A stretch of 64,000 bases of DNA from Candidatus Shapirobacteria bacterium (lineage in GTDB: Bacteria > Patescibacteriota > Microgenomatia > UBA12405): the NCBI GenBank assembly GCA_041665485.1, contig JBAYIT010000001.1, forward strand, positions 345,399 through 409,398. The letters run 5' to 3'. The notes under the pieces were generated by a model that had not been told where the DNA came from, ran no database searches, and saw nothing but the letters and a program-made list of their open reading frames with translations. Position numbers and translations under genes: made by a program. Below, piece by piece: positions 3,251-62,752 of the stretch; within the stretch, counting starts at the first letter, position 1; each line of letters opens with the position of its first letter.

Positions 3251-3682
3251 ATGGATGAGGTAAATGCAAAAATAACCAACAAGATTGCGAGTTATCAGAC
3301 AGCGGTTCTTAATCCTCTTTTTGCTGTTATGGATGTTTCCAATGAAGCGAAACAACACTTACTTGAGACTATATCGATGACTATTTTGGGTGACTTTTTT
3401 GTAACTATTGTTGAGGCTATTGCCGACAAAGAAAAACAGCAAAGAGCAGTAGCGATCATTAATAATGATGAATCTAAACCTGAAGATAAATTACAAGCAT
3501 TTTCAAAAATTGTACAAGAGGATAGAGAGTTGCAGAAAGTTGGGGAAAATTTTCTTGATACTAAACTACCTCAATATATAAATGATACCGTTTCGGCCTA
3601 TCTTGCCGTAGCTACTAAAGAACAGAAGGAGGCATATTTTGCCCTCGTGCAGAAAGTAGTTGACTCGACTGGTCAGGAATAG
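3251..3682 (+). CDS. hypothetical protein
   Basis: 143-aa ORF, tightly spaced after 2795 ORF. No recognisable motifs. Confidence 0.45.
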   Translation: MDEVNAKITNKIASYQTAVLNPLFAVMDVSNEAKQHLLETISMTILGDFFVTIVEAIADKEKQQRAVAIINNDESKPEDKLQAFSKIVQEDRELQKVGENFLDTKLPQYINDTVSAYLAVATKEQKEAYFALVQKVVDSTGQE

Positions 3683-3747
3683 ACAAGGATTAGTCAGGAT
3701 AGGGTGAATTGAGGTCAAGATTGAGGAAATGTTATGGGATAGGATAA
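3671..3747 (+). promoter_or_regulatory. conserved upstream module B (3 x GTCAGGA at 21-bp phase + promoter-like spacing)
   Basis: gtcag at 3672, 3693 and gtcaag at 3714. TTGAGG-N17-TTATGG follows. Upstream of ORF 3788. Confidence 0.55.
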
Positions 3748-8043: not shown

Positions 8044-9233
8044 ATGATCTTATGAGTACTTTTGGACCAATATTAACTAAAGAAAGTTATCGGGTGGTGG
8101 CCGAAGTGGTGGAAAAGGTGATTGACGGGAGTAAATTAGAGGTACTTGTGGGATTACCGTATTCGGGGCGGTCCTTGATTTTGCGGCAAATGATGTACAA
8201 CCCGGAATTTTATAGTGAAGAATTTAAAAAGAAGGTAGAGAAAATAGTTGGAGTAGTGTTTGATATTCCCTCGGAGGCTGGTTTGGATGAGGTTTGGCAA
8301 AATAGTCCCTGGGGGAAAAAGATGGGAGGGAATTTTGAGGAGGCGGTTGAAAAAATAGTGAGTAGTGGTAAGCGATTAGTTTTAGCAATTAATTCAATTG
8401 ACACCTTGGGAGATAGTAAGGAAACTAGAAAAAATTGGAAGAAACTAATGGCAATTTATTATCGTCATCAGGCAGGTATTTCTTGGATAATTGGCCAAGG
8501 TTGGGAGGAGGTTGACGATGTGGCTGGTTGGCTTAGAGAAATGGATGGGTATTATCTAACCAATAAAAATTGGTTGCCAATGAGAACTTTAGAGGATATA
8601 AGCTTGTTTTTAAAAAATAGTAATAGTCAAAAACCAGAGACAGGGAAAATTTATGGTTTGAGTGGTGGATATTATTGTTTGGCAGAAAGGCTTAGAGAAA
8701 AACCGGAATTAGTTGATGCGCCGGTGGCGGTTAACGACGGAGTTATAGATCATTATTTGGGAATTTTATGGGAAAGTTGTGGCGAGAAAAGTCAACAGCA
8801 ATTATTAGATTTAATGCGGGGAAAGAGTAGTAATTTTAATGATTATTTGGCTAAAACTGGAGTGGTAAAAATAGAAGAGGGAAAGTGGAAATTATTTTCA
8901 CCGTTATTTTACGAGTGGCTAAAAAAGATGGTGGGAAGTAAGAGGCCAGAGATTGAGGAAAAGCTGGAAAAATTGTGGTTGGGAAGTAGTGATTTGAGCG
9001 AGGAGTTGAGTTATCAGGAGTATGAGGTATTGAAATTGCTGTGGCAAAAACAGGGTGAGGTGGTGGTGCGAAATGAGGTGGCCGAAGTGTTGTGGCCAAA
9101 TGATACGGAGGATAAATATTCCGATTGGGCGATTGACCAGGTAATGGCAAAAATTAGAAAAAAGCTTGGAGATGTAGGGGAAAATAGATTGATTAGGACA
9201 ATCAAGGGCAAGGGGATGATGCTAGAAAAATAG
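8040..9233 (+). CDS. P-loop NTPase-like domain fused to C-terminal OmpR/PhoB-type winged-helix DNA-binding domain (putative transcriptional regulator)
   Basis: C-terminus LSYQEYEVLKLLWQKQGEVVVRNEVAEVLWPND..DQVMAKIRKKLGD..LIRTIKGKGMML matches the trans_reg_C consensus (L.E..LL..L....G.V.SR..L...VW......D....I..LRKKL.....I.TVRG.GY). N-terminus has Walker-A-like GLPYSGRS and Walker-B-like LVLAINSID. Confidence 0.6.
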   Translation: MNDLMSTFGPILTKESYRVVAEVVEKVIDGSKLEVLVGLPYSGRSLILRQMMYNPEFYSEEFKKKVEKIVGVVFDIPSEAGLDEVWQNSPWGKKMGGNFEEAVEKIVSSGKRLVLAINSIDTLGDSKETRKNWKKLMAIYYRHQAGISWIIGQGWEEVDDVAGWLREMDGYYLTNKNWLPMRTLEDISLFLKNSNSQKPETGKIYGLSGGYYCLAERLREKPELVDAPVAVNDGVIDHYLGILWESCGEKSQQQLLDLMRGKSSNFNDYLAKTGVVKIEEGKWKLFSPLFYEWLKKMVGSKRPEIEEKLEKLWLGSSDLSEELSYQEYEVLKLLWQKQGEVVVRNEVAEVLWPNDTEDKYSDWAIDQVMAKIRKKLGDVGENRLIRTIKGKGMMLEK

Positions 9234-9310
9234 TCAGAATTGGGCAAAAAATAGTCAGGAAAGAGGCATTTAAGGTCAAGATGTTAATAATGTTATGGGA
9301 TATTATGGGG
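9232..9310 (+). promoter_or_regulatory. conserved upstream module C (3 x GTCAGGA at 21-bp phase + TTAAGG-N17-TTATGG)
   Basis: gtcag at 9233 and 9254, gtcaag at 9275. Immediately downstream of the regulator gene and upstream of ORF 9357. Confidence 0.55.
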
Positions 9311-17485: not shown

Positions 17486-17709
17486 AGATTACAAGAGATA
17501 AGGGGTTGAAATGACGAGGAGCCACCCAACTCCTTATTCTCTTCTAATCTCTAGTTGTTAAGTTTACAACCTATATTATACATTATTTATGTCGCTTGTC
17601 AAGTTATAGGTCTATGTTTTAAAGTAATTGGTAAACGGTAACCGGTAATTGGTAAAAATATAGGGCTAGAAGATGGTTGATTAGATTTCGAGGCCTATAA
17701 AGTTTAGAT

Positions 17710-19741: not shown

Positions 19742-20355
19742 TTGATTGTGGATTTCCATCGACGGTCGATAAGATTGAAAGGTTTTGATTATTCGAGTAA
19801 CGGGTTGTATTTTGTGACGGTAGATTTGGAGGATAAAAGAAATTGGCTATGGGAAATCGATGATAATAGCGGAGATGGGAATATAGGAAAGGGCGGAAAT
19901 GGGAATATAGGAAAGGGCGGAAATGGGAATATAGGAAAGGGCGGAAATGGGAATATAGGAAAGGGCGGAGATGAGAATGAGGAGAAGGGCGGACACATCG
20001 GTCCGCCCGTACATATGAATGAGATCGGGAAAATGATGGATTATTGGTGGGGTGAAATAAAATGTCATTTTCAAAATGTGGAATTAGATGAATATGTAAT
20101 AATGCCAAATCATATGCATGGAATAATAATTATTAAATGGGAAATATCATCCAATGGTTTAAAACAATGACGACCAATGAATATATCAACAATGTGAAAT
20201 CAAATAATTGGCCGAGATTTAACAAGAGATTGTGGCAGAGAAATTATTTCGAAAGAATAATTCGAAATAAAAGGCAATACGAAGCAATTAAAAAGTATAT
20301 TAGGGAAAATCCAATAAATTGGAATACAAATCAGAAAAGGGATTTGATAAAATAG
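19742..20355 (+). pseudogene. IS200/IS605-family Y1 (RAYT-like) transposase, frameshifted, with internal 24-bp tandem repeat expansion
   Basis: ORF 19742-20170 ends in the HuH motif region LDEYVIMPNHMHGIII. ORF 20137-20355 in the +1 frame continues with the catalytic-Tyr region LWQRNYFERIIRN..YIRENPINW, matching RAYT/IS200 TnpA. The frameshift lies in an A/T homopolymer tract near 20125-20145. Confidence 0.6.
19877..19996 (+). repeat. 5 x 24-bp perfect tandem repeat (gggaatataggaaagggcggaaat) inside transposase remnant
   Basis: Four near-identical units plus one degenerate unit. In-frame, encoding (GNIGKGGN)n. No spacers, so not CRISPR. Confidence 0.9.
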
Positions 20356-24863: not shown

Positions 24864-27239
24864 TTACTTGAGAATGACTTTGATGGGCCAAGATTTCATG
24901 CCAGTGTTCTTTTGTTTGTCCCAAACAGAGAGGGATGTCCAGTAGTCGCCGGCTTTAGTTGGCCAGCCACGAAGAGTACAAGTGAATAACTTTCGAGAGT
25001 CGTTTTTGGCGGTGTATTGACGGCAGGAGCTGTAGAGGCCACGAGGTAAATTGGTGAATTTAAAATAGAGGTAATGTTTTTTATCGGGGTCAGAGCCGGT
25101 GATAGTGGCGGAATAATATTTGTAGCGCTTAAGGACTGGAAAGGAGGTGTCGATGATAGTGATGTGAGAGGGAGGGGGAGCCGGAGGCCCGGGAGGTGAA
25201 GAACCGCCACCACCACCACCAGAATTACCACCGCCACCTCCGCCACCACTTGAAGAGCCACCCCCACCTCCACCGATAGCCGGGGCAGTTGTGGGAGTTG
25301 GTGTATTAGTCGGAATTGGAGTTAAAGTCGGGGTTGGGGTTAGGGTAGGAGTTGGAGTATTGGTTGGCGTTGAAGTTGGGGTGGAGGTGGGCGTTGAAGT
25401 ATTAGTAGGAATAGGTGTATTTGTTGGAGTTGGGCTGGGGGTGGGGGTAGAAGTAGGGGTAATTACTAAATTTGGTATGGCAAAGTTTCGGGTAGTAGTT
25501 CTGGTGTAGGTATATGGCAGTGGGCCACCATCTTTACTAAAAGAAATAAATCCTGATGGGAGACCTAGAGGGTATGTATAACGGTAGTAGTTATAACTAA
25601 CACGGTCATAAGTGACACGAGAATTTTCTGGTTTAGGTTGGTATGAGGAAAGTGAAAAATATTTTGCCGGCGGCTGATAATTCCAATAAGCCATTTCAGC
25701 TTGATCTGAAGAGATGCCGGAGGTGATTGGATAAAGCTCAAAAACTGTTTTATTAAATTGATTATTTGAAAAATCGTGAGTAATGTAGAAAACACGGTTG
25801 CCAAAAGGATTAAGGCCGTTTTGATTGTTGACAGGCCGATAACGCTTATCGAAAGCGGTTGAAACAAATAATACTCTGGCTTTTTTGTTGGCACCAAAAT
25901 AATCAACAGTTAGATCGATATTGGTAACGGTGGGGTTGATCAATGTTTTGGCGGTGGTGTTAAAAATTCGGCTGTCGTAACAAAAAGAGCTTAAATATGA
26001 GTGAGATGTAGAAGCCGTTGAAGTTGAACCGAAAAGATCAAAACACTCTTCTGCGGTAGGATCAATAATAGTAGACGTAAAAGAGGGATAACTTTGATTG
26101 TTACTAGTAAAGCTTATTGGTTGCGAGCTATTGGATTGGCCAAGAGCAAAGAGTTGTTTTAGATTTTTAACTTGATCGCCAGTGATATTAAAAATGATTG
26201 AATTAGTTGAATCTTTGACTTCGGCGGTGATGGTGATGTTGTAATATTCCAATGTTTGAGGGTCGCTGTCGCCAATTTGTCTGGCGGCTGGAACCGGATA
26301 GTAACAGTGAGGAGCTCTCTTTTCACAATCCTCTTTGGCAATTTGTTGCCAGCGGACGTCAGTAGTTTGGCCATTGTTATCAACGTAATCCCAGTAATAC
26401 CCATCAGTACACCAATATTTAATGCCGATGTGTCCTGGCCAAGCCATCTGGACTAAAAACTGTTCACCTTGATATTCGATTTTATCAACTACTGTTTTTA
26501 GTGGGCAGGATAGACCGATTGGGAGTGGAATTGGAGTGGGAGTGGGGGTGGAAGTAGGGGTTGGAGTTGGGGTGGGGCTGTTGGTAGGAGTAGGAATAGG
26601 TGTTGTTGGCGAGCTTGAATTGTATGCGATGGAGCTTGCTTCAAAGTCAACAGTTCCATGACCGATGTTTTGACTGTTGGCCGAGTCGGAGAAATCACCA
26701 TCTAGGTGGAATAGAGATACTGTGAATTCGTCGGGGACAAACGGGGTCGATGGTGGGGTAAAGTTAGCGGCATATCTGACGTTTTTTGAGATTCGAATTT
26801 CATCAATACTCCCATAGAATGGAGCATCGTTTGGTTGATACATTCCAATATAAAAGGGGCCGTTTCCGTAAATGATTGGCACAGAAGTACTAGTTGACCC
26901 TTGGAGTTGTCCGTTAACATACAAGCGACCGTTCTGTCTGTTTTGGTTGTTTGGGTCGTTTACCAAGGCGATGTGTGACCATCGGCCGCATAAATTTGAG
27001 TTGGAGGTAATAGCCTGGACTCCACTACCATACATGAAACGACCAGTGTTATCGTTGTAGATTCCTTTGTATGTGAAAAAGGAGAAAGAGTCATTATAGG
27101 GAAGGTCGAAGTTTTCTCGTTTTCGGAAAGCATAAAAAGTACCATCGGGAGAGTTGGTGCAGTCTTTTTTGATCCAGCCTTCGGCGGTAAATTCTTGGAG
27201 ATTGTAGATGCTACCAGGGAAACTTACGCCTTGCCCCAC
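24864..27239 (-). CDS. large Pro/Thr-rich surface protein with LamG/ConA-like lectin domain (C-terminal 791 aa; same frame as ORF 27378-27866)
   Basis: N-terminal part resembles a LamG-like jelly-roll (GRWSHIALV...LYVNGQ...FYGSIDEIRIS). PT-rich linkers, a poly-Gly/Ser tract and a Cys-containing C-terminal domain follow. Apparent start is GTG, and the frame stays open upstream to the TAA at 27378-27380. Confidence 0.6.
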   Translation of the reverse strand: MGQGVSFPGSIYNLQEFTAEGWIKKDCTNSPDGTFYAFRKRENFDLPYNDSFSFFTYKGIYNDNTGRFMYGSGVQAITSNSNLCGRWSHIALVNDPNNQNRQNGRLYVNGQLQGSTSTSVPIIYGNGPFYIGMYQPNDAPFYGSIDEIRISKNVRYAANFTPPSTPFVPDEFTVSLFHLDGDFSDSANSQNIGHGTVDFEASSIAYNSSSPTTPIPTPTNSPTPTPTPTSTPTPTPIPLPIGLSCPLKTVVDKIEYQGEQFLVQMAWPGHIGIKYWCTDGYYWDYVDNNGQTTDVRWQQIAKEDCEKRAPHCYYPVPAARQIGDSDPQTLEYYNITITAEVKDSTNSIIFNITGDQVKNLKQLFALGQSNSSQPISFTSNNQSYPSFTSTIIDPTAEECFDLFGSTSTASTSHSYLSSFCYDSRIFNTTAKTLINPTVTNIDLTVDYFGANKKARVLFVSTAFDKRYRPVNNQNGLNPFGNRVFYITHDFSNNQFNKTVFELYPITSGISSDQAEMAYWNYQPPAKYFSLSSYQPKPENSRVTYDRVSYNYYRYTYPLGLPSGFISFSKDGGPLPYTYTRTTTRNFAIPNLVITPTSTPTPSPTPTNTPIPTNTSTPTSTPTSTPTNTPTPTLTPTPTLTPIPTNTPTPTTAPAIGGGGGGSSSGGGGGGGNSGGGGGGSSPPGPPAPPPSHITIIDTSFPVLKRYKYYSATITGSDPDKKHYLYFKFTNLPRGLYSSCRQYTAKNDSRKLFTCTLRGWPTKAGDYWTSLSVWDKQKNTGMKSWPIKVILK

Positions 27240-27377
27240 GGTGGTGAGTTTGATTGCCTGGCCGAAAGGGTTGGTTGGTGATGGAATTGGGGTGGTGGTT
27301 GATGTCGGAGTGGGAGTGGAAGTTGCTGTTAGTGTTGGAATGGGTGTGGAATTGGTGGTAGCAGTGAGAGCAACATG

Positions 27378-28123: not shown

Positions 28124-28207
28124 ACGTCATCGCGAGGCCGAAGGCCGTGGCGATCTCGTTTGGGATTGCTTCGTCCTCCGAAAGCTTTCGGAGTCCTCGC
28201 AATGACG
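28124..28207. repeat. REP/MITE-like palindromic element, copy 1 (acgtcatcgcgagg...cctcgcaatgacg)
   Basis: 13-bp terminal inverted repeats enclose ggccgaaggccgtggcgatctc..gggattgcttcg plus an internal hairpin. Other copies at 37624-37727 (reverse orientation, with insert), 55577-55648, 56005-56081, and a minimal fused form at 62735-62752. Confidence 0.8.
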
Positions 28208-28217
28208 GACGATGTGG

Positions 28218-29087
28218 TTAAAGAACAGTATAAACGACATCATTAATAGTATTGGCGCCGGAGAGGAGCATGGCAAGCCGGTCGAAACCGAGGCCGACGC
28301 CGGCGATAGGAGTGGGTAGGCTTGCTGAATTGATGGCGAAATTGGGATTAGTGCGGTGGATGGGGAGATTGTTTTGAAGGCGAAAATTGGTTTCGGTGGC
28401 AAAATTTTCTTCGATTAGTTTGGGGTCGGTGTTTTCAGTACAGCCGTTGGCAATTTCCATGCCATTAATATAGAGTTCAAAACGTTCTGCCAGATTATTT
28501 TTTGGTTTGGCTAATGGTGACATGAAGGCAGGGTAGTCAGTAATAAAAATAGGAGTGAGGGGGAGTTTTGGCTCGATATGGTTTAGAAAAATTTGATTGA
28601 GATCCGGCTCGTTTTTGGGGAGAGAAAAGCCCTTGTTGGCAAAAAGTTTAGCGAGGGGAATTCGGGGCCAAGGAGCATTGGGTATCTTTAGTGTTCGAAT
28701 ACTCTTTATTTTATTAAAGCAGTGGGTAATATAGTTTTGGGTAGAAGTCATTAAGTCAGTGTAATTGTGGCCGATTTCGTACCACTCGAGCATGGTAAAT
28801 TCGGGTTGATGAAGAGGGCCACTGGCTTCAAGGTCGCGAAAAGACTTAGAAATGGCAAAACAATTTTGTTTTTGAGTGGCTAAAATCTTCTTTAGGGTAG
28901 ATTCAGGAGAAGTAGCTAAATATAACTTTTGCTTATTGTGTTGCCAAATGGTGGAAAATGAGTAAATATCTGGTTCGATTGGGAGAGAGGGTAGAAGGAT
29001 GGGCGGGTCGACTTCAATAAAACCGTTAGCCCAAAAATATTCCCTGGTAAATTTTAATAATTGCTGACGAATCTCTTGAGGGGACAT
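28218..29087 (-). CDS. epmA: EF-P lysyl transferase-like protein (truncated class II LysRS paralog, EpmA/PoxA family)
   Basis: Motifs YLATSPE, SKSFRDLEASGPLHQPEFTMLEWY align with EpmA (SPE..., FRNE...HNPEFTMLEWY). Size about 290 aa, lacks an anticodon-binding domain. Confidence 0.6.
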   Translation of the reverse strand: MSPQEIRQQLLKFTREYFWANGFIEVDPPILLPSLPIEPDIYSFSTIWQHNKQKLYLATSPESTLKKILATQKQNCFAISKSFRDLEASGPLHQPEFTMLEWYEIGHNYTDLMTSTQNYITHCFNKIKSIRTLKIPNAPWPRIPLAKLFANKGFSLPKNEPDLNQIFLNHIEPKLPLTPIFITDYPAFMSPLAKPKNNLAERFELYINGMEIANGCTENTDPKLIEENFATETNFRLQNNLPIHRTNPNFAINSASLPTPIAGVGLGFDRLAMLLSGANTINDVVYTVL

Positions 29088-29118: not shown

Positions 29119-30069
29119 TCAAGAAAAGTATTTTATAACATCTTGGCAGGAGGGTAGGTGGAGGTCTTGAGAATAACCACAATTATATTTTGGATCACAA
29201 CAACCGGAACAGGAAATTTTTAATTTCTCCGTCTGAGACGGACTTCGCTTCGCTTCGCAATTTTCAATTTTCAATGAATGTTCAAATTTATTAATTTCAA
29301 AATTATTAAATAGTTTGCAGTTTTGACAAGTGGAAAGTAAATTTGAAAAATCAGTAACTATTTTTTTAATTGGATCGGAGAGTTTGCCGATAGAAATAGG
29401 GGATTCGCAACAACTATAAATTAGGCCGTTTGACTGAAGAGAGATTTGGGAGCAGCCTAAATTTTTTCCTGGAAAAGTGGGGTAATTTTGTTTAATGTTG
29501 ATAACTTGGGCGGGAGTGAGAGAGCCTAAACGGTCGGTGAGATAGGTAACGGTAACTGGTAATCGGTAATCGGTAATCAGTGATCTGGGAAAAGAGTCCT
29601 TATACTTATATGAATCTTTAGTAATTAGAAAAAAGATACCAACGGGGAAGCCGAGGGAAAGGGCGTGGTTGATAAAGTCGATAGATTTGGCAAAATTGCC
29701 CCCCCCGCGATTTTTGTCGTGAATTTCCTTGGGGCCATCAAGAGAGACCAGAAGCTGGCAGTTTTGAGGATCATTGATTTTATCGAGTTGGTCGATAGTG
29801 CCATTAGTAATAATGGTGATAAATATGCCAAGTTTGAGGAGATTATTGACGAGGCAGGGAAAGCTTTTAAGAGTGAAGACTTCACCACCGCAAAAAGTAA
29901 TAGATCCTAGATTTTGGTTTTTAGATGTTAGATAGGAACGATATCTTTTAACAAAACCTAGAATTTGCTTGTTGGTGAGGATATTTTTAGTCTTGCGGGT
30001 GTAGCAGTATTTGCAGGCAAGGTTACAGGATTCGAGAGGAGAGATATAAAGACTAGTTAGCATGGCCAA
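29119..30069 (-). CDS. radical SAM enzyme with SPASM/twitch-like C-terminal Cys cluster
   Basis: N-terminal CNLACKYCY (Cx3Cx2C) after 14 residues. CGGE SAM-binding glycine motif. C-terminal CSQISLQSNGLIYSCC (Cx8Gx4C) and CQNC...C...SCSGCC...C clusters. Two repeat families are inserted in-frame (29230-29275 and 29545-29585). Probable ATG at 30063, 8 nt after the rpmG stop. Confidence 0.7.
   Translation of the reverse strand: MAMLTSLYISPLESCNLACKYCYTRKTKNILTNKQILGFVKRYRSYLTSKNQNLGSITFCGGEVFTLKSFPCLVNNLLKLGIFITIITNGTIDQLDKINDPQNCQLLVSLDGPKEIHDKNRGGGNFAKSIDFINHALSLGFPVGIFFLITKDSYKYKDSFPRSLITDYRLPVTVTYLTDRLGSLTPAQVINIKQNYPTFPGKNLGCSQISLQSNGLIYSCCESPISIGKLSDPIKKIVTDFSNLLSTCQNCKLFNNFEINKFEHSLKIENCEAKRSPSQTEKLKISCSGCCDPKYNCGYSQDLHLPSCQDVIKYFS
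29545..29585. repeat. ggtaat[ct] heptamer tandem array (in-frame inside radical SAM gene)
   Basis: ggtaacggtaactggtaatcggtaatcggtaatcagtgatc encodes ITDYRLPVTVTYLTD on the minus strand. Family members at 17625-17658, 22246-22265, 43258-43296, 43575-43600, 56471-56510, 61218-61258 and 61624-61662. Confidence 0.8.
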
Positions 30070-31468: not shown

Positions 31469-31480
31469 GCTTTTTTATTG

Positions 31481-31577
31481 CTCAATAACTGATTTTTGCA
31501 ATCCTCGCTACCTTCGGGGTCCGCTGTATGCTGGACCGTTCGCTGCGGGTTGAAAAATCGTTATTTCGCAATCAATA
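31481..31577. repeat. 85-bp palindromic element, copy B
   Basis: caataactgatttttgcaatcctcgctaccttcgggg...cgctgcgggttgaaaaatcgttattt. Same core as copies A and C, with covarying outer stem. Confidence 0.6.
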
Positions 31578-37477: not shown

Positions 37478-37623
37478 TAATTGTAAAATTGCGACGACCT
37501 GTCCGAAAGCCTTCGGACTGCTCTGTCTCCCCGATATTGTGATCGGGGTCGTCCCCTGGACGAAACTGTGGGGTTTAGCCCCACTCCGGTTCCATACCGG
37601 AGAGCTATTCAGGCAAGATTCCA

Positions 37624-37727
37624 ACGTCATTGTGAGGATCCCGATAGCTATCGGGAGACGAAGCAATCTCAATGAGATCGCCACGGCCTTTGGCCTTCCG
37701 TCTGAGCCGGACGCGGCGCGATGACGT
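37624..37727. repeat. REP/MITE-like palindromic element, copy 2 (reverse orientation, with about 30-bp internal insert)
   Basis: Reverse complement reads acgtcatcgcg[ccgcgtccggctcagacgg]aaggccaaaggccgtggcgatctcattgagattgcttcgtctc..cctcacaatgacgt. Part of a GC-rich, hairpin-dense intergenic stretch at 37480-37740. Confidence 0.7.
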
Positions 37728-39093: not shown

Positions 39094-39831
39094 TTAGCGA
39101 CAGGTGATTGGGCGATTAGCACAGACATTGCTAGCATAGGCTTTCCAAAGACTTAGTGGCTTACAACTAGTTGGTCCACCCATAGTTTCTTGCCAACCAT
39201 CGGTACATTCTATATCGAGATAGTGATAATTATCGGCACCACAATTCCCCCGAACATTGTATTTCTGTAACTTTATCTTGTCACAGGAAATACTTGCTGG
39301 AGTTGGGGTTGGCATAATGGAAACTTGTGGTGTTGGCATAGCAGAAACACGAGGGGTAGGCATAATGGAAACTGGTGGAGTCGGTATGATTGCTGTTGGA
39401 CAGAAAGGTCTAATTGTCTCCAATAGTTTAATACATGAGCTTGGTTTTTCTAGACAATCATTTTGAATAAAAGCCATAATGACGGAACAAGGGACTGATT
39501 GTCCTATGGTAACTGGTGTTGGTGTTAGATATGTAGTTGGGAAAGGGCGAGCAATGACACAAATGTTATTTATACACATCTCCCCACCTCTGTAATCGCA
39601 GTCAAAATCACTCTGACATTTTTTGGGAATATTTGAAGTTGGGGTTGGAGTGTTGGTGGGTCTGATGGCTGTGGTTGGATAGACAGTTTGTGTTGGAGTG
39701 GGAGTTGGTATTGGATTGGTGATGGTCAGACCGAGAATACCCCCTTTCTTGGTTTGATCGATGAGGTTAACAGTAGTAAGAGAAATAAAGCAGATAACGA
39801 GAGCAATAATAGCTGTTTTAGTGGTGTTCAT
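39094..39831 (-). CDS. hypothetical secreted Cys-rich, Pro/Thr-rich protein
   Basis: Signal peptide MNTTKTAIIALVICFISLTTVNLI. PTPTPTQT linkers and many Cys residues. Confidence 0.5.
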   Translation of the reverse strand: MNTTKTAIIALVICFISLTTVNLIDQTKKGGILGLTITNPIPTPTPTQTVYPTTAIRPTNTPTPTSNIPKKCQSDFDCDYRGGEMCINNICVIARPFPTTYLTPTPVTIGQSVPCSVIMAFIQNDCLEKPSSCIKLLETIRPFCPTAIIPTPPVSIMPTPRVSAMPTPQVSIMPTPTPASISCDKIKLQKYNVRGNCGADNYHYLDIECTDGWQETMGGPTSCKPLSLWKAYASNVCANRPITCR

Positions 39832-39879: not shown

Positions 39880-40488
39880 CTAGAAAAGCAGATGGAGGAG
39901 GAAGGTGGTGGGAGGGGAGAGGATGAGGGAGAGAATGTTGCTGGAACCAAAGGGGAGGATGAAGAGAAAGATGAGGATAAGTTGGCCGTAACGGCCCAAG
40001 CTTTCTTCCCAGTTTAGGGAAGATTCCAAAGGTAAAAGATTAAGAAAAATTTTAGAACCATCGAGGGGGGGCAAGGGGAGGAGATTAAAGAGAGCAAGAG
40101 AAATATTGATAAGAGCAAAAACATAAAGAATGGGAGTAAGAGAGGAAGGGAGAAAATTATTTGAAAGTCCGGCTAGTAGGGCAAGAAGCAAATTACTGCC
40201 GGGGCCGGCCAGAGAAACTAAAAGTTCATCGCGACGGGGGGAGCGGAAATTATAGGGGTCAATTTGAACCGGTTTACCCCAACCAAAGTGGGCGATAATA
40301 AGCATTAAAGTTCCAATTGGGTCGAGATGACGAAGAGGGTTGAGAGACAGTCGGCCAAGACTTCTGGGAGTTGGGTCGCCTAGACGATCGGCGACTAGGG
40401 CGTGGGCAAATTCATGGACAGTAATGGCGACAACAAGAATGATGAGAGAAAGTGGGTTTAGCATGATGGGTTTTTGTAATATGGCCAA
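39880..40488 (-). CDS. M50-family (site-2 protease-like) membrane metallopeptidase
   Basis: HEFAHALVA (HExxH) inside a TM segment. DPIGTLML and LAGPGSNLLLA are typical of M50B peptidases. Confidence 0.75.
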   Translation of the reverse strand: MAILQKPIMLNPLSLIILVVAITVHEFAHALVADRLGDPTPRSLGRLSLNPLRHLDPIGTLMLIIAHFGWGKPVQIDPYNFRSPRRDELLVSLAGPGSNLLLALLAGLSNNFLPSSLTPILYVFALINISLALFNLLPLPPLDGSKIFLNLLPLESSLNWEESLGRYGQLILIFLFILPFGSSNILSLILSPPTTFLLHLLF

Positions 40489-41904: not shown

Positions 41905-42459
41905 GTGAGACGAATTTTGACTTATCCTGACCCAATTTTGAGAACTAAAACGAAAGAAGTTAAGGCGGTTGACGAGAAACTGCTTGGTGAAATTAATGAG
42001 TTGAAGGAGATTTTATTAAAGAGTGAAAATGGGGCGGGGCTGGCGGCTACTCAAATTGGGTCGGCGGGCAGGTTTTTTGGATTGAAAAATTTGAGTAAAA
42101 AAAAGACGGAAGTTTTTATTAATCCAAAAATTACCAAATTTTGGGGAGAAAAGACATATCCTCGAATTATAAAAAACAAGGATGAGTCGGAAGATTTTCT
42201 GGAAGGTTGTTTGTCGTTTCCCAATTATTACGGCACAGTGAAGAGATATTTAAAGATAGAGGTGGAGTGGGATGAAATTAGGAGTAAGGAACTTGGTACG
42301 AGGAAAAAGGTGTTGGAAGGGTTTGAGGCGATTGTTTGGCAACATGAAGCAGATCATTTGGATGGGATTTTGTTTATTGACCATATAAAGCGGGACGGGG
42401 GAAAGTTGTATTGGTGGGAAGGAGAAACTAAAAAAGAGATATTAGATCCTAGATTTTAG
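41905..42459 (+). CDS. def: peptide deformylase
   Basis: GAGLAATQIG, EGCLSFP and HEADHLDG are the three canonical PDF motifs. Confidence 0.9.
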   Translation: MRRILTYPDPILRTKTKEVKAVDEKLLGEINELKEILLKSENGAGLAATQIGSAGRFFGLKNLSKKKTEVFINPKITKFWGEKTYPRIIKNKDESEDFLEGCLSFPNYYGTVKRYLKIEVEWDEIRSKELGTRKKVLEGFEAIVWQHEADHLDGILFIDHIKRDGGKLYWWEGETKKEILDPRF

Positions 42460-44393
42460 ATGTTAGATTTTTTGATTTTGTCGAGGTACTTTTGAGCATC
42501 AATGTTGGTGGGGGCAAATTTGAGGGTAGATTCAAATAGTTGACGGGCTTCGGAGTATTTTTTTTGATTAAAGTAGATTTTGCCGAGATTAAAAAGGGCG
42601 TGGTCGTAGTTGGATTTGAGAGCAATGGCTTGTTGATAGTATTTAGTGGCGGTGGTTTCGTCTTTATTAAGTTCGTTAAAGTAGCCTAGGAGATAAAAGC
42701 TTTTGGCGTCGGTGGGGGCTAATTTAACGACTTGCTCTAGGCTATTAATTGAGGCAGAGATCATTTTAGGGTCGAGGGCCGAGAGATAAAAATAATTTTG
42801 GGCTGATTGCTTCCAAAAATTAGTATTGGCGGGAGAGATTTCTAGGGCGAGTTGGGTGAATTGAAGGGATTGACTGGAATAGAGCTTTTTTGACTCCGGA
42901 TTAGAAATGGCGACGGCTAACTTAGCGGTAATTGAGCCGGCGGAGATTAAATATTCCGGTTCGTTTGGCGATAGTTTTAGAGCTAAAATAATTTGAGTCA
43001 AGGCAGGTTGAATTTGGTTTTGGGAGTCAAGAGTTGAGGCTTTGGCAAAACAGATATCGGCCAAAAACAATTTGGAAATTTGGAGTAAGAGAAATAAGGG
43101 GATAATTAAGACTAAAAACAAAAAAGATCGTCGATCGTCGATCGTCGATGGTCGATTATTTTCATTTAGAACGAGGGCGGGGAGGAGAAAGAGGTAGAGA
43201 GAGGTGATGACGATGGAAAAGCCAGTGAGGTTGGTGATGAGAATTGACAAGAAAGAAATGGTAATTGGTAATCGGTAATTGGTAATCGGTAATTTGAGAA
43301 ATAAATATAGAATAGAAAAAATAAGAATAAGATAGGTGAGGAGGCCGAAGGTGCCGGTGGTGGCGGAAAAATTAAGATATTCGTTGTGGGCTTTGTTGTA
43401 GAGGAAATCCCATTCGGAGGTGAGATTGTGAGACGAAGGCCTGGTCCAATAATAGGAATAAGCAAAGGTTTCGACACCGGTGCCAAAGAGTGGGTAGTGG
43501 CGCCAGAGATCGAAAGCGCCTTGCCAGACGATTTTGCGAATATCCTGACTAGGAGTGATATTGATGTTTTGTGACTCGTGATTAGTGATCGGTGATCCGG
43601 TTTTAGAAGGGAACACGAGGTCTTTGATGGGATTGTTGATGATGAGAGTTAGAGTCAAAAGTAAAAAGTAAAAAGTGAAAAGTGAAAGCTTATTTTTTTG
43701 TTTTTGAATTAGAGAAAGGACAAAAAATAAAAACAAACAAACAAGGGCGGTGAGGATGCCGGTTTTGGATTTGGTAGAGAGAAGACAAAAATAGAAACAA
43801 GAACTAAGAGCTAAGAAATAAGATTTATTAATAAAACTCTTTGAATTTAGAAATTTAAAGAGAGAAAAGGGGAGGAGGAGGCAGAGATAGGCGGATAACC
43901 AATTGGGCTGGCCGAAAGTGGAGAAAACTCGTGATTGAACATCCTGAACCCAGTAGGTTTTATCAATGCCAAAGTGTTGGGCTATGCCATAGAGAGAAAC
44001 TATAAATCCAGAGATTAGGGAATAATTAATAATTTTGGATTTTAATTCTTCGGTAATGTGAACAGACAAAATAAAATAGAGAAGAACAAAACAGACAGTG
44101 GAAATTAGGCCACCATTGAGGCGGGAATAGTAACCAAAAAGTGAAGTGTGAATGTCGATGGAAAAAATAGTAGAAATAACTTGGGAAGTTAAAAACAAAA
44201 GAAGGGGAATGGTGAGAAGGGTGGAGCGAAGGAGGTGGTTCTTACCTTTAATCCAGCCATAAAGATGTAAAGTAAGAATGGTAAGGGTGGCAATATAAAC
44301 AAAATACATTTTGGGGACTTCAAAAAGCTCGGAATTTAGGGGGGAATAGAGGAGAGGGGTGAGAAAAAAGAGAAGACAGTAGAGAAAGTTCAT
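42456..44393 (-). CDS. O-antigen ligase (Wzy_C)-family polytopic membrane protein with C-terminal TPR repeats
   Basis: About 10 TM helices, Wzy_C-like WQGAFDLWRHYPLFGTGVETF, and C-terminal TPR-like repeats. Contains in-frame inserts of three repeat families plus a (cgatcgt)4 heptamer microsatellite at 43125-43160. Confidence 0.6.
   Translation of the reverse strand: MNFLYCLLFFLTPLLYSPLNSELFEVPKMYFVYIATLTILTLHLYGWIKGKNHLLRSTLLTIPLLLFLTSQVISTIFSIDIHTSLFGYYSRLNGGLISTVCFVLLYFILSVHITEELKSKIINYSLISGFIVSLYGIAQHFGIDKTYWVQDVQSRVFSTFGQPNWLSAYLCLLLPFSLFKFLNSKSFINKSYFLALSSCFYFCLLSTKSKTGILTALVCLFLFFVLSLIQKQKNKLSLFTFYFLLLTLTLIINNPIKDLVFPSKTGSPITNHESQNINITPSQDIRKIVWQGAFDLWRHYPLFGTGVETFAYSYYWTRPSSHNLTSEWDFLYNKAHNEYLNFSATTGTFGLLTYLILIFSILYLFLKLPITNYRLPITISFLSILITNLTGFSIVITSLYLFLLPALVLNENNRPSTIDDRRSFLFLVLIIPLFLLLQISKLFLADICFAKASTLDSQNQIQPALTQIILALKLSPNEPEYLISAGSITAKLAVAISNPESKKLYSSQSLQFTQLALEISPANTNFWKQSAQNYFYLSALDPKMISASINSLEQVVKLAPTDAKSFYLLGYFNELNKDETTATKYYQQAIALKSNYDHALFNLGKIYFNQKKYSEARQLFESTLKFAPTNIDAQKYLDKIKKSNI
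43258..43296. repeat. ggtaat[ct] heptamer tandem array (in-frame in Wzy-like gene)
   Basis: gtaattggtaatcggtaattggtaatcggtaatt encodes LPITNYRLPITI on the minus strand. Confidence 0.8.
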
Positions 44394-53686: not shown

Positions 53687-53727
53687 GATCTTAGATCTTG
53701 GATCTTAGTTCTTAGATTCTAGATTAC
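53687..53727. repeat. gatctta heptamer tandem array
   Basis: ggatcttagatcttggatcttagttcttagattctagattac at the 3' end of the ATPase gene. Same family at 60048-60080, 42445-42476 and 41270-41305. Confidence 0.8.
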
Positions 53728-55943
53728 TTATGCTTGCCCCAGCGTTCTTGGGAAGTGCGGATGAGCTTATCGTGGCCTTGGTTTTTACAGTCAAGTAGAG
53801 GCAGAGTGGTGGCGTAAAATGGTTCTTTGGTTTCGGAGTCGATCGATAATTTACAAATGATTTGATATTTGCCCAGTTTGACTAGGTCATCGGCGGGGAA
53901 CTTCTCGCCAAATTCTTTGCTTAAGATATAAGCGTCTTGATTGCCAACGACAAAGGACATAAGTGAGCCGACGTTGCCAAAAATAGCGTCTTGGATGGGG
54001 CGCTCAAGCTGATTCATATATTGGTTGGCAACAATGAGGTTGAGTTTAAATTTGCGGGCTTCAGAGAGTATTTTAATAAAGGCCTCGGTGGCAAAATTTT
54101 GGAATTCGTCAACGTAGAGATAGAAGTCTGATCGGTCGGCTTGTGTTTGAAATACCCGATTCATGGCCGAAAGTTGAATTTGGGTGATCAACATGGCGCC
54201 AAGAAGGGCAGAATTATCTTCGCCGAGTTTGCCATTGGACAGGTCGGCGATCAAGATTTTCTTTTGATCCATGATATCTTGAATGCGGACTTTAGATTTG
54301 GGGTGGGCAATAGTGTTGCGGATATTAGTGGAGGAAATAAATTGGCCGACTTTGTTCAAAATAGGAGCGATGGCTTCGTTTTGGAATTTGGCATCCATTT
54401 GATCAAATTCATTAATCCAGAAGTTTTTAAGAGTTTGATTGGCAAGGAGAGGAACGATTTTTTGGCGATAAGATTTGGAGGTGAGAATTTCAACGATATG
54501 AGTGAGATCGGAGCCGGGAACGTTGACGAGAGTTAAAACGGCGTTGCGCAAAATATGCTCGAGGCGTGGCCCCCAGGAGGTGGCGCCATAAAGTTTTTTG
54601 AAAATGGAAATAACGCCGGAGGCAACTAATTCTTTTTGGGAATCGTTTTCAGCCTCCAAAACATTTAAGGGGTAAACATAATCGGGATCGGCGGGGTTGA
54701 AATAACAACAATCGTTGATGCGGGAGGAGGGGATGTAATCAAGAATAGTTTGGCAAAGGTCGCCGTGGGGGTCGATGACGGCTACGCCCCGGCCTTTGCG
54801 AATATCGTCGATGGCCATGTTGGCGATGAGAGTGGTTTTACCGGTGCCGGATTTACCGACAATGTAGGTGTGGCGGCGGCGGTCTTCACCTTCTTTAATG
54901 CCAAAAATAGCTTCTTTATTGCGGAATTCGGTTTTGGCAAAAACAGTCACGTTTTGACGTTCTTCTTCGGAAAGGTCGGCAACGACGGGTAAGTTTTCGG
55001 GCGGATCAGCATACAGCTTTTTGCCCCAAGCAATGTTGGGGATCTTGGTTTTTTCTCCGGGAAAGTGCCAAAGGACTGACAATTCTTCAGTGTTTAAAAT
55101 TTGATGATTAAGAGAAGAAGTAAAAGCGCGGTTAAGAATCGATTTGAGTAATTTCTTTTTGGTGAAAAAACCGGGTTGATTAATTTTAATAAAATTGCCA
55201 CGAGGGTTGGTATAAATGCCAAAGGAAGAGGTAAAAGCAGATAGAAGGCCGGAATTATTGGTTAAAAAATTAATTTGGGTGAGGAGGCCGGGGAATTGGA
55301 TTTTGGTTTCGAAAACGGCCTTATCGGGGTGATTTTGGCGAAAATTGCGGGATGAGTCGACCATGATGCCATTTTGAATGATGGAGGTGATGGGGTATTG
55401 CCAATTGTTGGGGGCGGAAGTGATTAAAATTTGATAAAGAAAAAAATCGGTGGGGGAGAGGGAGCGGGAAAGGGGGGAGAGGAGGGAATTAAGGGGATCA
55501 GTGTCCTTAAAATCGTGAATGGATTTTATTGGATAATTGTCTGATTTTGATAAGGACAATTGACTAAAAAATAGCCCGTCATCGCGAGGCCGAAGGCCGT
55601 GGCGATCTCCTTGGGATTGCTTCGTCGCTTCGCTTCTCGCAATGACGTCGGAAGCAAGGTAATCATTAATTTCCAAAGTAATAGCGGTGGGGTACTGGGC
55701 TAGGATTTGGGAGCGAAAGAATTCGGCTGAATCGGCAGGCGTTGCCACCATAAAATAAAGCTGGCCTTGTTTGAGAACGATTTCTAAAGAAATGGCGGTG
55801 TGCTTTTTGCCAAAGATGCGGTCAAAAAACGAGCCTGTGCCGGCTTGAGAAAAATTAGAGAGGAGGGAGGACATGGATTCGAGAGTGAATTCGTTGGTTT
55901 GAGGAAGACGGATGTTGAAGAGTTTCCAGGGAGACATAACCAA
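53724..55943 (-). CDS. P-loop NTPase of the TraG/TraD/VirD4-like (DUF87/AAA-like) conjugation/secretion ATPase type
   Basis: Walker A IVGKSGTGKTTL and Walker B YLYVDEFQNF in a C-terminal domain of about 400 aa. No N-terminal TM helices. Carries a complete REP-like element in-frame (55577-55648, encoding SDVIARSEATKQSQGDRHGLRPRDD). Confidence 0.5.
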   Translation of the reverse strand: MVMSPWKLFNIRLPQTNEFTLESMSSLLSNFSQAGTGSFFDRIFGKKHTAISLEIVLKQGQLYFMVATPADSAEFFRSQILAQYPTAITLEINDYLASDVIARSEATKQSQGDRHGLRPRDDGLFFSQLSLSKSDNYPIKSIHDFKDTDPLNSLLSPLSRSLSPTDFFLYQILITSAPNNWQYPITSIIQNGIMVDSSRNFRQNHPDKAVFETKIQFPGLLTQINFLTNNSGLLSAFTSSFGIYTNPRGNFIKINQPGFFTKKKLLKSILNRAFTSSLNHQILNTEELSVLWHFPGEKTKIPNIAWGKKLYADPPENLPVVADLSEEERQNVTVFAKTEFRNKEAIFGIKEGEDRRRHTYIVGKSGTGKTTLIANMAIDDIRKGRGVAVIDPHGDLCQTILDYIPSSRINDCCYFNPADPDYVYPLNVLEAENDSQKELVASGVISIFKKLYGATSWGPRLEHILRNAVLTLVNVPGSDLTHIVEILTSKSYRQKIVPLLANQTLKNFWINEFDQMDAKFQNEAIAPILNKVGQFISSTNIRNTIAHPKSKVRIQDIMDQKKILIADLSNGKLGEDNSALLGAMLITQIQLSAMNRVFQTQADRSDFYLYVDEFQNFATEAFIKILSEARKFKLNLIVANQYMNQLERPIQDAIFGNVGSLMSFVVGNQDAYILSKEFGEKFPADDLVKLGKYQIICKLSIDSETKEPFYATTLPLLDCKNQGHDKLIRTSQERWGKHK
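55577..55648. repeat. REP/MITE-like palindromic element, copy 3 (inside ATPase coding sequence, in-frame)
   Basis: cgtcatcgcgaggccgaaggccgtggcgatctccttgggattgcttcgtcgcttcgcttctcgcaatgacg. Confidence 0.8.
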
Positions 55944-56004: not shown

Positions 56005-56081
56005 ACGTCATCGCGAGGCCGAAGGCCGTGGCGATCTCGTTCGGGATTGCTTCTCCGCTAGCTGGCGGATCGCAATGACGT
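56005..56081. repeat. REP/MITE-like palindromic element, copy 4 (intergenic)
   Basis: acgtcatcgcgaggccgaaggccgtggcgatctcgttcgggattgcttctccgctagctggcggatcgcaatgacgt. Preceded by an agttacg array (55953-55986). Confidence 0.8.
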
Positions 56082-56210
56082 TAAATTTGTTTTTGTCTTA
56101 TGGGATAAAAGAAACTACATACGTAGTAGGTAGAAAAAAGACCACTTGCTACTTGAAAATGATTTTATAAGAGTGTATCTTATAGGGCAATTTACTAGTT
56201 ATTATCTTTT

Positions 56211-56441: not shown

Positions 56442-56552
56442 TTTAACCAGACAGGATCCGAAGAAAAAACACTGGTAATCAGTAATTGGTAATCAGTAAC
56501 TGGTAACTAGAAACAAGAAAAAAGTTAAAAATTTAATTTAATCCGCCAGTGG

Positions 56553-60552: not shown

Positions 60553-60560
60553 TTTCTGGC

Positions 60561-60642
60561 TCGATAACTAATTTTTGCAGTGCTCACGCGTTGCGCCCTT
60601 CGGGCTTACATGATTGCGCGCTGAAAAATTGTTATCTCGCCT
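60561..60642. repeat. 85-bp palindromic element, copy C
   Basis: cgataactaatttttgcagtgctcacgcg...cccttcgggc...gcgcgctgaaaaattgttatctcg. Outer stem differs from copy A by paired, complementary substitutions. Confidence 0.6.
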
Positions 60643-60665
60643 TAAAATTATTGCTATACTAACTT

Positions 60666-61217: not shown

Positions 61218-61258
61218 CATTGGTAATTGGTAATTGGTAATCTGTAATCTGTGATAGG
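61218..61258. repeat. ggtaat/tctgtaa heptamer array (left flank of four-helix-bundle gene)
   Basis: attggtaattggtaattggtaatctgtaatctgtgatagg. Inverted counterpart at 61624-61662 (gattaccaattaccaattactgattactgattactaatc). Confidence 0.8.
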
Positions 61259-61625
61259 AAATAAATTGGTTGATTTTTATGATCTAGAAGCATGGAAGGA
61301 AGGACATAAGTTGGCTCTGTTGGTGTATGGAATGGTTAGTAAATTACCATCAGACGAAAAATATGGTTTGTCAGATCAACTAAGAAGAGCTTCAGCTTCG
61401 GTAACGGCAAATATTGCCGAGGGTTTTGGTAGGTTTCATTTTAATGACAAAATACACTTTTTCTATTTATCGAGAGGTTCGGTGAAAGAAGTTCAGAGTT
61501 TTTTATTGCTAGGGAGAGATTTGAAGTATTTGAGTGTAGTAGATGTTAATATTGTTTGGACCCAATCAAAGTCGGCTGAAAAATTAATTAACGGACTAAT
61601 AAGGTCAACAGAAAAACAAAAATGA
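61251..61625 (+). CDS. four-helix-bundle protein (TIGR02436, 23S rRNA IVS protein / Avd-like)
   Basis: GTG start. YDLEAWKEGHKLALLVY...LSDQLRRASASVTANIAEGFGRF...FLLL matches the family signature. Confidence 0.8.
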   Translation: MIGNKLVDFYDLEAWKEGHKLALLVYGMVSKLPSDEKYGLSDQLRRASASVTANIAEGFGRFHFNDKIHFFYLSRGSVKEVQSFLLLGRDLKYLSVVDVNIVWTQSKSAEKLINGLIRSTEKQK

Positions 61626-61662
61626 TTACCAATTACCAATTACTGATTACTGATTACTAATC
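61624..61662. repeat. inverted heptamer array (right flank of four-helix-bundle gene)
   Basis: Reverse complement pairs with 61218-61258 over gattaccaattaccaatta. Confidence 0.8.
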
Positions 61663-62734: not shown

Positions 62735-62752
62735 ACGTCATCGCAATGACGT
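62735..62752. repeat. minimal REP-like palindrome (acgtcatcgcaatgacgt), fused terminal repeats without internal region
   Basis: 7-bp stem and 4-nt loop identical to the termini of the long copies. Lies between rseP and the convergent GH gene. Confidence 0.6.

Follow-up and report, generated by a model that had tools for sequence, protein, structure and literature searches.

The CGTC-tagged REP superfamily was described by Di Nocera, De Gregorio and Rocco (2013, BMC Genomics 14:522; PMC3733652) and, in the passages of that paper compared here, includes the Neisseria dRS3 repeat (family CGTC-1) and the Rickettsia elements RPE-4 and RPE-6. According to the same passages, the published families have a contiguous stem of 8–9 bp, a loop of 4–5 nt, a tail with the consensus CCA and the tag variants TGTC and CCTC, and they have no dedicated transposase. 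The Neisseria REP ATTCCCGCGCAGGCGGGAATC forms REPINs that are tied to a Group 2 RAYT (bioRxiv 10.1101/2021.07.10.451892).

In the present study, a 64,000-nt stretch of a Candidatus Shapirobacteria genome (hereafter the window) was found to contain several copies of a small palindromic repeat, which was compared with these systems. As described in the passages of Di Nocera et al. (2013), the CGTC superfamily has in common with the repeat the terminal CGTC/TGTC tag, a stem starting with A-T and T-A pairs (here ATCGC/GCGAT and ATTGC/GCAAT), the occurrence of intragenic copies and the lack of a linked transposase. Inverted dimers predominate in both, with the proviso that the search pattern used here demanded a doublet. 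The tail of the repeat has 3 nt, which are CTC or CCC in the window and CCA in most of the proteobacterial and Bacteroidota members. The taxa named in those passages overlap our pattern matches in Bradyrhizobium, sphingomonads, Micavibrio, Rickettsiales and Coxiellaceae. The published description of stem and loop does not fit the repeat, which has a 5-bp basal stem, an internal loop or branched interior and a separate apical hairpin. The passages compared, from which families CGTC-1 to CGTC-4 are known to us by description, name no host from the CPR or Patescibacteria, whereas the host here belongs to the CPR.

Like REPINs (Bertels and Rainey 2011; PMC3337134), the repeat is built of inverted units with a short spacer, forms a long hairpin and is present in multiple copies; in both cases the total length is ~70–100 nt, there is no target-site duplication and the element is non-autonomous. 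The defining partner of REPINs, however, is a RAYT flanked by the repeats, and none was found in ~74 kb (the window plus an adjacent 10 kb), out of at least 411 kb in the genome. In addition, REPIN-RAYT systems are described as being inherited vertically within lineages, whereas the doublet described here has near-identical ends across phyla. The E. coli BIMEs are likewise heterodimers of two REP unit types with differing stems and an imperfect long hairpin, but their tag is GTAG rather than CGTC. As in the Rickettsia RPEs (Ogata et al. 2000, 2002, as summarized in part of PMC10969869), which are inserted in frame in unrelated protein-coding genes and give rise to a tolerated peptide, one copy in the window forms an in-frame insertion at a structurally permissive site of an ATPase gene. 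Elements of the RPE-1 type, in the same partial account, are ~150 bp long and encode a conserved peptide; the intragenic copy here is 72 nt long and is the only one of the four full window copies to lie within a gene. Overall, the element represents a familiar type of repeat, probably selfish, in a host lineage that is new for it, Candidatus Shapirobacteria (Microgenomates, CPR/Patescibacteria).

Anatomy of the doublet and its copies in the window

The 22-nt core of the element, GGCCGAAGGCCGTGGCGATCTC, matches the window four times with at most one mismatch (at 28136, 55588 and 56017 on the plus strand and at 37674 on the minus strand), compared to an expectation of 0.00 from 100 shuffles. The terminus CGTCATCGCGAGG and its inverted partner are present at every copy. 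All five sites proposed by the initial annotation were recovered, namely four full copies (72–104 nt) and one copy with fused termini (18 nt). The copies and their host or neighbouring genes are as follows.

28124..28207, plus strand: copy 1, full doublet of 84 nt; the same junction occurs in Logan contig L002
28125–28157: unit A of copy 1 (CGTC, ATCGC ... GCGAT, CTC), with apical hairpin GGCC-GAA-GGCC
28158–28161: spacer of copy 1, GTTT
28162–28207: unit B of copy 1, inverted (GGG, ATTGC ... GCAAT, GACG), with apical palindrome CTCCGAAAGCTTTCGGAG
28127..28402, minus strand: spurious 91-aa ORF, a read-through of copy 1 overlapping the epmA-like gene at its 3' end
28218..29087, minus strand: epmA-like gene (class II aaRS-like, PF00152, 289 aa), with copy 1 directly downstream
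37624..37727, minus strand: copy 2, full doublet (104 nt), oppositely oriented
53724..55937 (ORF to 55943), minus strand: ATPase gene, 737 aa, host of copy 3
55576..55648, plus strand: copy 3, intragenic doublet of ~72 nt, antisense to the ATPase gene
56005..56081, plus strand: copy 4, full doublet (77 nt), situated ~60 nt before the start codon of the ATPase gene
62735..62752, strand unassigned: collapsed copy of 18 nt, ACGTCA-TCGC-AATGACGT, between convergent genes

Alignment and folding of the copies reveal two types of unit. Unit A is composed of CGTC, ATCGC, GAGG-GGCC GAA GGCC-GTG, GCGAT and CTC, and the inverted unit B of CGTC, ATTGC, GAGG-variable palindrome-ACGAA, GCAAT and CCC. The consensus unit of the doublet is therefore written as CGTC-AT(C/T)GC...GC(G/A)AT-C(T/C)C, i.e., a CGTC tag, a 5-bp basal stem starting with AT, a short internal loop, a variable apical palindrome and a 3-nt tail, with a unit size of 31–46 nt. 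The units of a doublet are separated by 3–4 nt, with the tags pointing outward and the tails facing each other. CGTC occupies all eight unit heads of the four full window copies, and all copies fold strongly (z-scores of -3.1 to -5.2). The apical hairpins in the window are unrelated perfect palindromes (CTCCGAAAGCTTTCGGAG, CCCGATAGCTATCGGG, CCGCTAGCTGGCGG and GCTTCGC), and they also differ between near-identical loci from two metagenomes (L127 and L134).

The 13-bp terminal inverted repeats proposed initially are borne out in that the termini occur at every copy, but the match between the two halves is broken by one C.A mismatch, each half being a unit of a different type. The termini of the element differ at this base (C versus T), which forms a Watson-Crick pair within each unit. 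In doublets parsed from other genomes, the basal-stem base that varies (T..A or C..G) covaries within the unit in 127 of 135 cases, 30 of these 127 having at least one C-G unit, and this covariation holds even where the termini thereby mismatch. Since the termini differ at a base that covaries with the inner half of its own unit, pairing is conserved within the units and not between the ends. The conserved structure is thus the unit hairpin of a REP doublet, rather than a simple element with terminal inverted repeats.

Copy 1 starts 10 nt past the stop codon of the epmA-like gene and, as originally noted, creates the spurious overlapping ORF. Copy 2 is located in a divergent spacer, between tRNA-Thr(TGT) and a gene at 37783. 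It is indeed inverted and carries an extra segment, but this segment, a mini-hairpin within unit A, measures 20 nt and not the 30 given previously; the apical palindrome of its unit B is CCCGATAGCTATCGGG. Between the tRNA gene and copy 2, five short GC-rich hairpins occupy positions 37478–37623 (folding energy -59.8 kcal/mol, z = -4.0; no Rfam match), and these are similar to the variable apical palindromes of the element. Copy 4 (repeat family D9), which precedes the ATPase gene as had been claimed, is 98% identical to copy 1 over the left 49 nt, whereas its apical hairpin (CCGCTAGCTGGCGG) is unlike that of copy 1. Two further candidates for degenerate copies, at 40224–40332 and 42805, were rejected as chance matches, and the 10 kb past the window contain no additional copy.

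The fused-termini copy is the 18-mer ACGTCATCGCAATGACGT, in which the left terminus of unit A and the right terminus of unit B are joined via a shared TCGC. Direct repeats of TCGC are situated in CATCGCGAGG and CCTCGCAATG, at the base of the hairpin, and when one TCGC and the interior are removed from ACGTCA-TCGC-GAGG...CC-TCGC-AATGACGT the result is exactly the 18-mer. The initial view of this site as an excision footprint or solo site thus appears broadly right, but the sequence would fit a hairpin-stimulated deletion between the 4-bp TCGC repeats better than the footprint of a transposase. The fused form is rare: 1.2 Mb of DNA rich in the element yielded one clear case.

The window copies were also found in ENA, JGI and Logan contigs, and their recurrence in independent assemblies rules out an assembly artefact. 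Position x of the window translates to 65575-x on ENA contig ERZ27249449:k141_1025756, of 411,674 bp. Logan contig L002 breaks off inside copy 1, as expected of a repeat. Near-identical contigs from other samples (L278, L280 and L281) show no presence/absence polymorphism of the copies, so that movement in the source population was not directly observed, and the fused copy is identical (fixed) in three independent assemblies.

Several other features of the window were recorded. The GC skew, (G-C)/(G+C), on the plus strand ranges from +0.26 to +0.52 in every 2-kb bin of 1–64000 independently of gene orientation, an unusually strong strand asymmetry. Tandem heptamers of the form GGTAAYY give 19 matches, versus 0.6 expected, at 17630–17656, 29551–29577, 43260–43293, 56474–56507, 61222–61248 and 61625–61644; two of these arrays lie within ORFs, 29119–30069(-), where the array is translated as ITDYRLPVTVTY, and 42456–44393(-). 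Other heptamer arrays (GTTACGA, AGATYTT, AAAGTCC and CAATTTT) recur in spacers. A 78-nt intergenic repeat with a promoter-like look, ending in TGTTATGGGATAAGATAA, occurs at 2693–2770, 3670–3747 and 9231–9308, and TCTTATGGGATAAAAG, which is akin to its end, follows copy 4 at 56096–56110. The 24-nt sequence GCGGAAATGGGAATATAGGAAAGG is repeated four times in tandem at 19869–19988. Degenerate G/T-rich repeats with periods of 6 and 18 nt occupy 25280–25460, 26521–26595, 27271–27369 and 39286–39680, within the long ORF 24864–27239(-) and nearby ORFs, and may represent low-complexity (Pro/Thr/Asn-rich) protein segments.

The copy within the ATPase gene

The 737-aa protein that hosts copy 3 consists of DUF8128, TrwB_AAD_bind and DUF87 domains, with GKSGTGKT as its Walker A motif, an architecture like that of T4SS DNA-binding or coupling-protein ATPases. 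The ORF 53724–55943(-) remains open through the copy, in agreement with the initial annotation, and reads ...SDVIARSEATKQSQGDRHGLRPRDD... The copy itself, whose first base is C and not A at 55576, is translated in frame as (S)DVIARSEATKQSQGDRHGLRPRDD(G) and provides residues ~97–121 of the ATPase. The 96 residues on the N-terminal side of the insert contain many positions that are invariant among 54 orthologues; because of this conservation, the copy is truly intragenic and does not lie in a mis-called 5' UTR.

Alignment of 119 orthologues places the insert in a hypervariable loop of 8 to ~40 residues, between DYL and FSQLxLxR. As had been anticipated, a CGTC-type insert is absent from nearly all of them (116 of the 119), and three proteins carry one. 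The DNA of P0031 and P0035 contains related doublets at this loop, with orientation and frame (D/N-V-I-A...) shared and an offset of 0–2 codons. The three insert-carrying proteins share only 75–78% identity, and their nearest relatives are without the element. In this regard, P0035 possesses a CGTC doublet in the loop, whereas P0046, 97% identical to it outside the loop, does not, indicating a recent, lineage-specific gain; P0021 and P0054 (~91% identical to P0035) are also devoid of the doublet.

In an AlphaFold2 model of the ATPase (mean pLDDT of 73.5), residues ~97–121 have pLDDT values of 41–52 and are located between strands 86–90 and 123–129 of the N-domain (pLDDT 83–91). Judging from this model, copy 3 would constitute a surface-loop insertion that is apparently harmless. 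Four of the six frames are free of stop codons in copies 1 and 3, and ~55% of frames are open throughout the family; with so many stop-free frames, an open in-frame insertion is not improbable, given a length divisible by three.

The same loop harbors a second palindrome, AATAATTTTTCGG...CCGCAAAAATTTATT, in many of the ATPase orthologues, where it encodes the peptide NNFSERSE...EGSEHRKNLF (L154 3001–5343, P0036; L156 3001–5193, P0046; and ~17 other orthologues). It occurs in full, decayed or fused form, and P0046 retains only the fused termini, AATAATTTTTCGGAAAAATTAATT. With the CGTC doublet and this palindrome at one site, the loop has been colonised by two unrelated palindrome families. The window contains another palindromic family, with three intergenic copies (949–1035, 31480–31570 and 60559–60645) and the ends GATAA(A)TTTTTGCAG / CTGAAAAATTATC, that is similar in style to the 'NNFS...RKNLF' palindrome in the ATPase loop of other Microgenomates.

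Distribution, mobility and origin

The possibility that the element is restricted to the window fails decisively. The pattern CGTCATYGCGAG-N35-65-TCGCRATGACG, which requires a doublet and leaves singletons uncounted, yielded at least 120 GTDB loci, in species genomes of several phyla. Among the matches listed, the hosts include Bradyrhizobium, sphingomonads, Micavibrio, Rickettsiales (including the MAG loci L020, L054, L068 and L071), Coxiellaceae/Legionellales and Burkholderiales, with Alphaproteobacteria thus represented, together with Bacteroidota, Planctomycetota, Omnitrophota and Margulisiibacteriota; in most of the GTDB matches listed, the inner repeat is GAAGCAATCC...GGATTGCTTC and the tail is CCA. 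The heterodimer subtype of the window was found in 29 metagenome contigs with GC contents of 0.33–0.70, often with TGTC or AGTC where the window has CGTC. The shorter pattern GTCATYGCGAG-N35-65-TCGCRATGAC matched at least 120 IMG/VR contigs, and most of those listed represent high-GC GTA/prophage-like regions; the ORF clusters near the listed IMG/VR doublets resemble the head-tail structural genes of GTAs or prophages of high-GC hosts. Several of these viral or proviral contigs (within L157–L276) carry three doublets in 8–12 kb. About 45 of the 80 nt are conserved across phyla and over GC contents of 0.33–0.70, and the 12-nt termini are identical from CPR to Proteobacteria. Like the four full window copies, all pattern matches are inverted doublets, as the pattern itself demanded.

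Among 285 family members, the base that precedes GTCAT is C in 78–81% and T in 15–17%, which corresponds to the CGTC/TGTC tag of Di Nocera et al. (2013). Partial tandem duplication of the termini is frequent (three times in L137, twice in L127, and the head twice in P0035). In L137, L127, L123 and L151, terminal pieces composed of the apical hairpin and CTCGCAATGAC are tandemly repeated two to three times, and orphan hairpins build up beside some of the copies; such arrangements suggest slippage or re-nicking at the ends. A BLASTN search of copy 1 against plasmids and phages gave no match, and a text search of the literature with the terminal sequences returned nothing relevant.

Target-site duplications, implied by the initial REP/MITE label, were found at none of the four full window copies, and duplications of 2–8 bp among the 285 non-redundant family members were at or below chance, the sole flank signal being the tag base. 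Their absence speaks for behaviour in the style of a REP or REPIN and makes a DDE-type MITE less likely. No insertion sequence with the ends of the element was found, and clustering of the ORFs situated within 1.5–2 kb of the elements revealed no recurrent neighbour protein family or parent insertion sequence at 149 listed genome and metagenome loci and 120 listed viral loci. The label can consequently be retained in its first half, since the repeat is confirmed as a small palindromic REP doublet (REP/REPIN-like) of a multi-copy family, and has to be dropped in its second. A phmmer search for RAYT/IS200-like proteins in the window and in 1.2 Mb of element loci, with two approximate queries, produced one weak match (E = 0.003). 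An association with GIY-YIG nucleases was considered and dropped, since a motif scan detected no such nuclease in the window or in 906 kb of loci that bear the element. Sequence considerations also led to the rejection of integron attC sites, dif/Xer sites and retron ncRNA.

We infer that the repeat is probably a selfish, non-autonomous REPIN-like element, composed of two CGTC-tagged, inverted REP-type hairpin units. A trans-acting protein would recognise the tag, the basal stem and the tail on folded single-stranded DNA, leaving the apical hairpin free to vary. The doublets would then spread in the genome without target-site duplication and settle in tolerated sites, which here would be short intergenic spacers and, once, the surface loop of the ATPase. 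There, copy 3 may have been able to persist as a disordered loop extension of ~24 aa because its frame lacks stops and its length is a multiple of three. Copies would decay via hairpin-stimulated deletion, with the 62735 site as the presumed product of a TCGC-TCGC event. The leading candidate for the mobiliser would be a RAYT-like HUH tyrosine transposase, by analogy with the REPINs of Neisseria and Pseudomonas. This analogy is the closest one, given that the CGTC-1/dRS3 repeat of Neisseria builds REPINs to which a Group 2 RAYT is linked; the Neisseria REP concerned presumably matches the dRS3 consensus.

Counting against the selfish reading are the single weak match to a RAYT/IS200-like protein in the DNA searched, the absence of polymorphism among the near-identical strains, the departure from the published stem and loop, and the 12-nt termini shared unchanged between CPR and Proteobacteria, for which a conserved host function would be an equally good explanation. 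E. coli REP/BIME sequences have been proposed to bind gyrase, IHF and Pol I, and the present element could similarly be a host-selected cis-acting element, whose hairpins stabilise or terminate mRNAs or whose DNA binds a conserved host protein. The conservation of ~45 of 80 nt over such a range of phyla and GC contents is in line with this explanation, as are the strong folding of all copies, the position of copy 1 just past a stop codon and that of copy 5 between convergent genes, and the location of REPs mostly downstream of ORFs in the passages of Di Nocera et al. (2013, BMC Genomics 14:522). No window copy, however, is followed by a U-tract, and the copies occupy divergent, convergent and co-directional spacers as well as a gene, in both orientations, and thus share no consistent transcriptional context of position or strand. 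The G:U-compatible positions prefer different strands in different helices, and Rfam returned only tRNAs for the window copies (at gathering and E-value thresholds) and for 14 loci from other phyla (at the gathering threshold), leaving the element unmatched. Moreover, the position of the element is not kept between orthologous regions of related genomes. We therefore consider host selection unlikely as the explanation, although it is compatible with the selfish reading. Somewhat more doubtful still is the proposal that the doublet CGTCATYGCGAG...GAAGCAATC / GATTGCTTC...CTCGCRATGACG is an ancient pan-bacterial replicator, its ends kept near-invariant via non-RAYT machinery or a universal host factor, and that insertion and collapse of palindromes diversify the loops of Microgenomates proteins. 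Were this to hold, the replicator would reach even CPR genomes of ~1 Mb, and the two unrelated families in the ATPase loop would generate diversity instead of being merely tolerated junk.

The copies might also be immobile products of duplication or gene conversion acting locally on short palindromes, with the 18-mer as a seed grown by snap-back synthesis. The hypervariable apical palindromes, the frequent tandem duplication of terminal parts (L137, L127 and P0035), the string of orphan hairpins adjoining copy 2, and the full and fused forms of the second palindrome family in the same ATPase loop would all agree with such an origin. It is nevertheless very unlikely, in view of the 98% identical 49-nt segments in dispersed copies 9–27 kb apart, the same 45 conserved nucleotides in unrelated genomes, and the rarity of the fused form, which is precisely explained by the TCGC deletion. 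A classical MITE, i.e., an insertion sequence shortened by deletion, bounded by 13-bp terminal inverted repeats and mobilised by a DDE transposase with duplication of the target site, would account for the terminal inverted repeats, the small size and the multiple copies. Duplications of 2–8 bp, however, do not exceed chance either in the family or at the window copies, pairing is conserved within the units and not between the ends, and the 149 and 120 listed loci yielded neither a parent insertion sequence nor a recurrent neighbour family; this reading is largely refuted, and we regard it as extremely improbable.

The repeat widens the known range of tagged REP doublets, whose best-known hosts are Proteobacteria, to include the Candidate Phyla Radiation, where such repeats are unexpected because CPR genomes are tiny and gene-dense. 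It also provides a CPR parallel to the 'protein-coding palindromes' of Rickettsia. In practical terms, the repeats make spurious ORFs, break short-read contigs and put recurrent peptides (VIARSEATKQS, IATAFGLAMT and SLRG..DEAI) into predicted proteins. The near-identical ends across phyla raise the question of which enzyme recognises CGTC-tagged hairpins. Among the orthologues of a conserved T4SS-type ATPase, a single surface loop displays full, duplicated and collapsed palindrome states, and the points of most interest are the cross-phylum invariance of the ends and the way in which palindromes have repeatedly colonised this loop and collapsed there.
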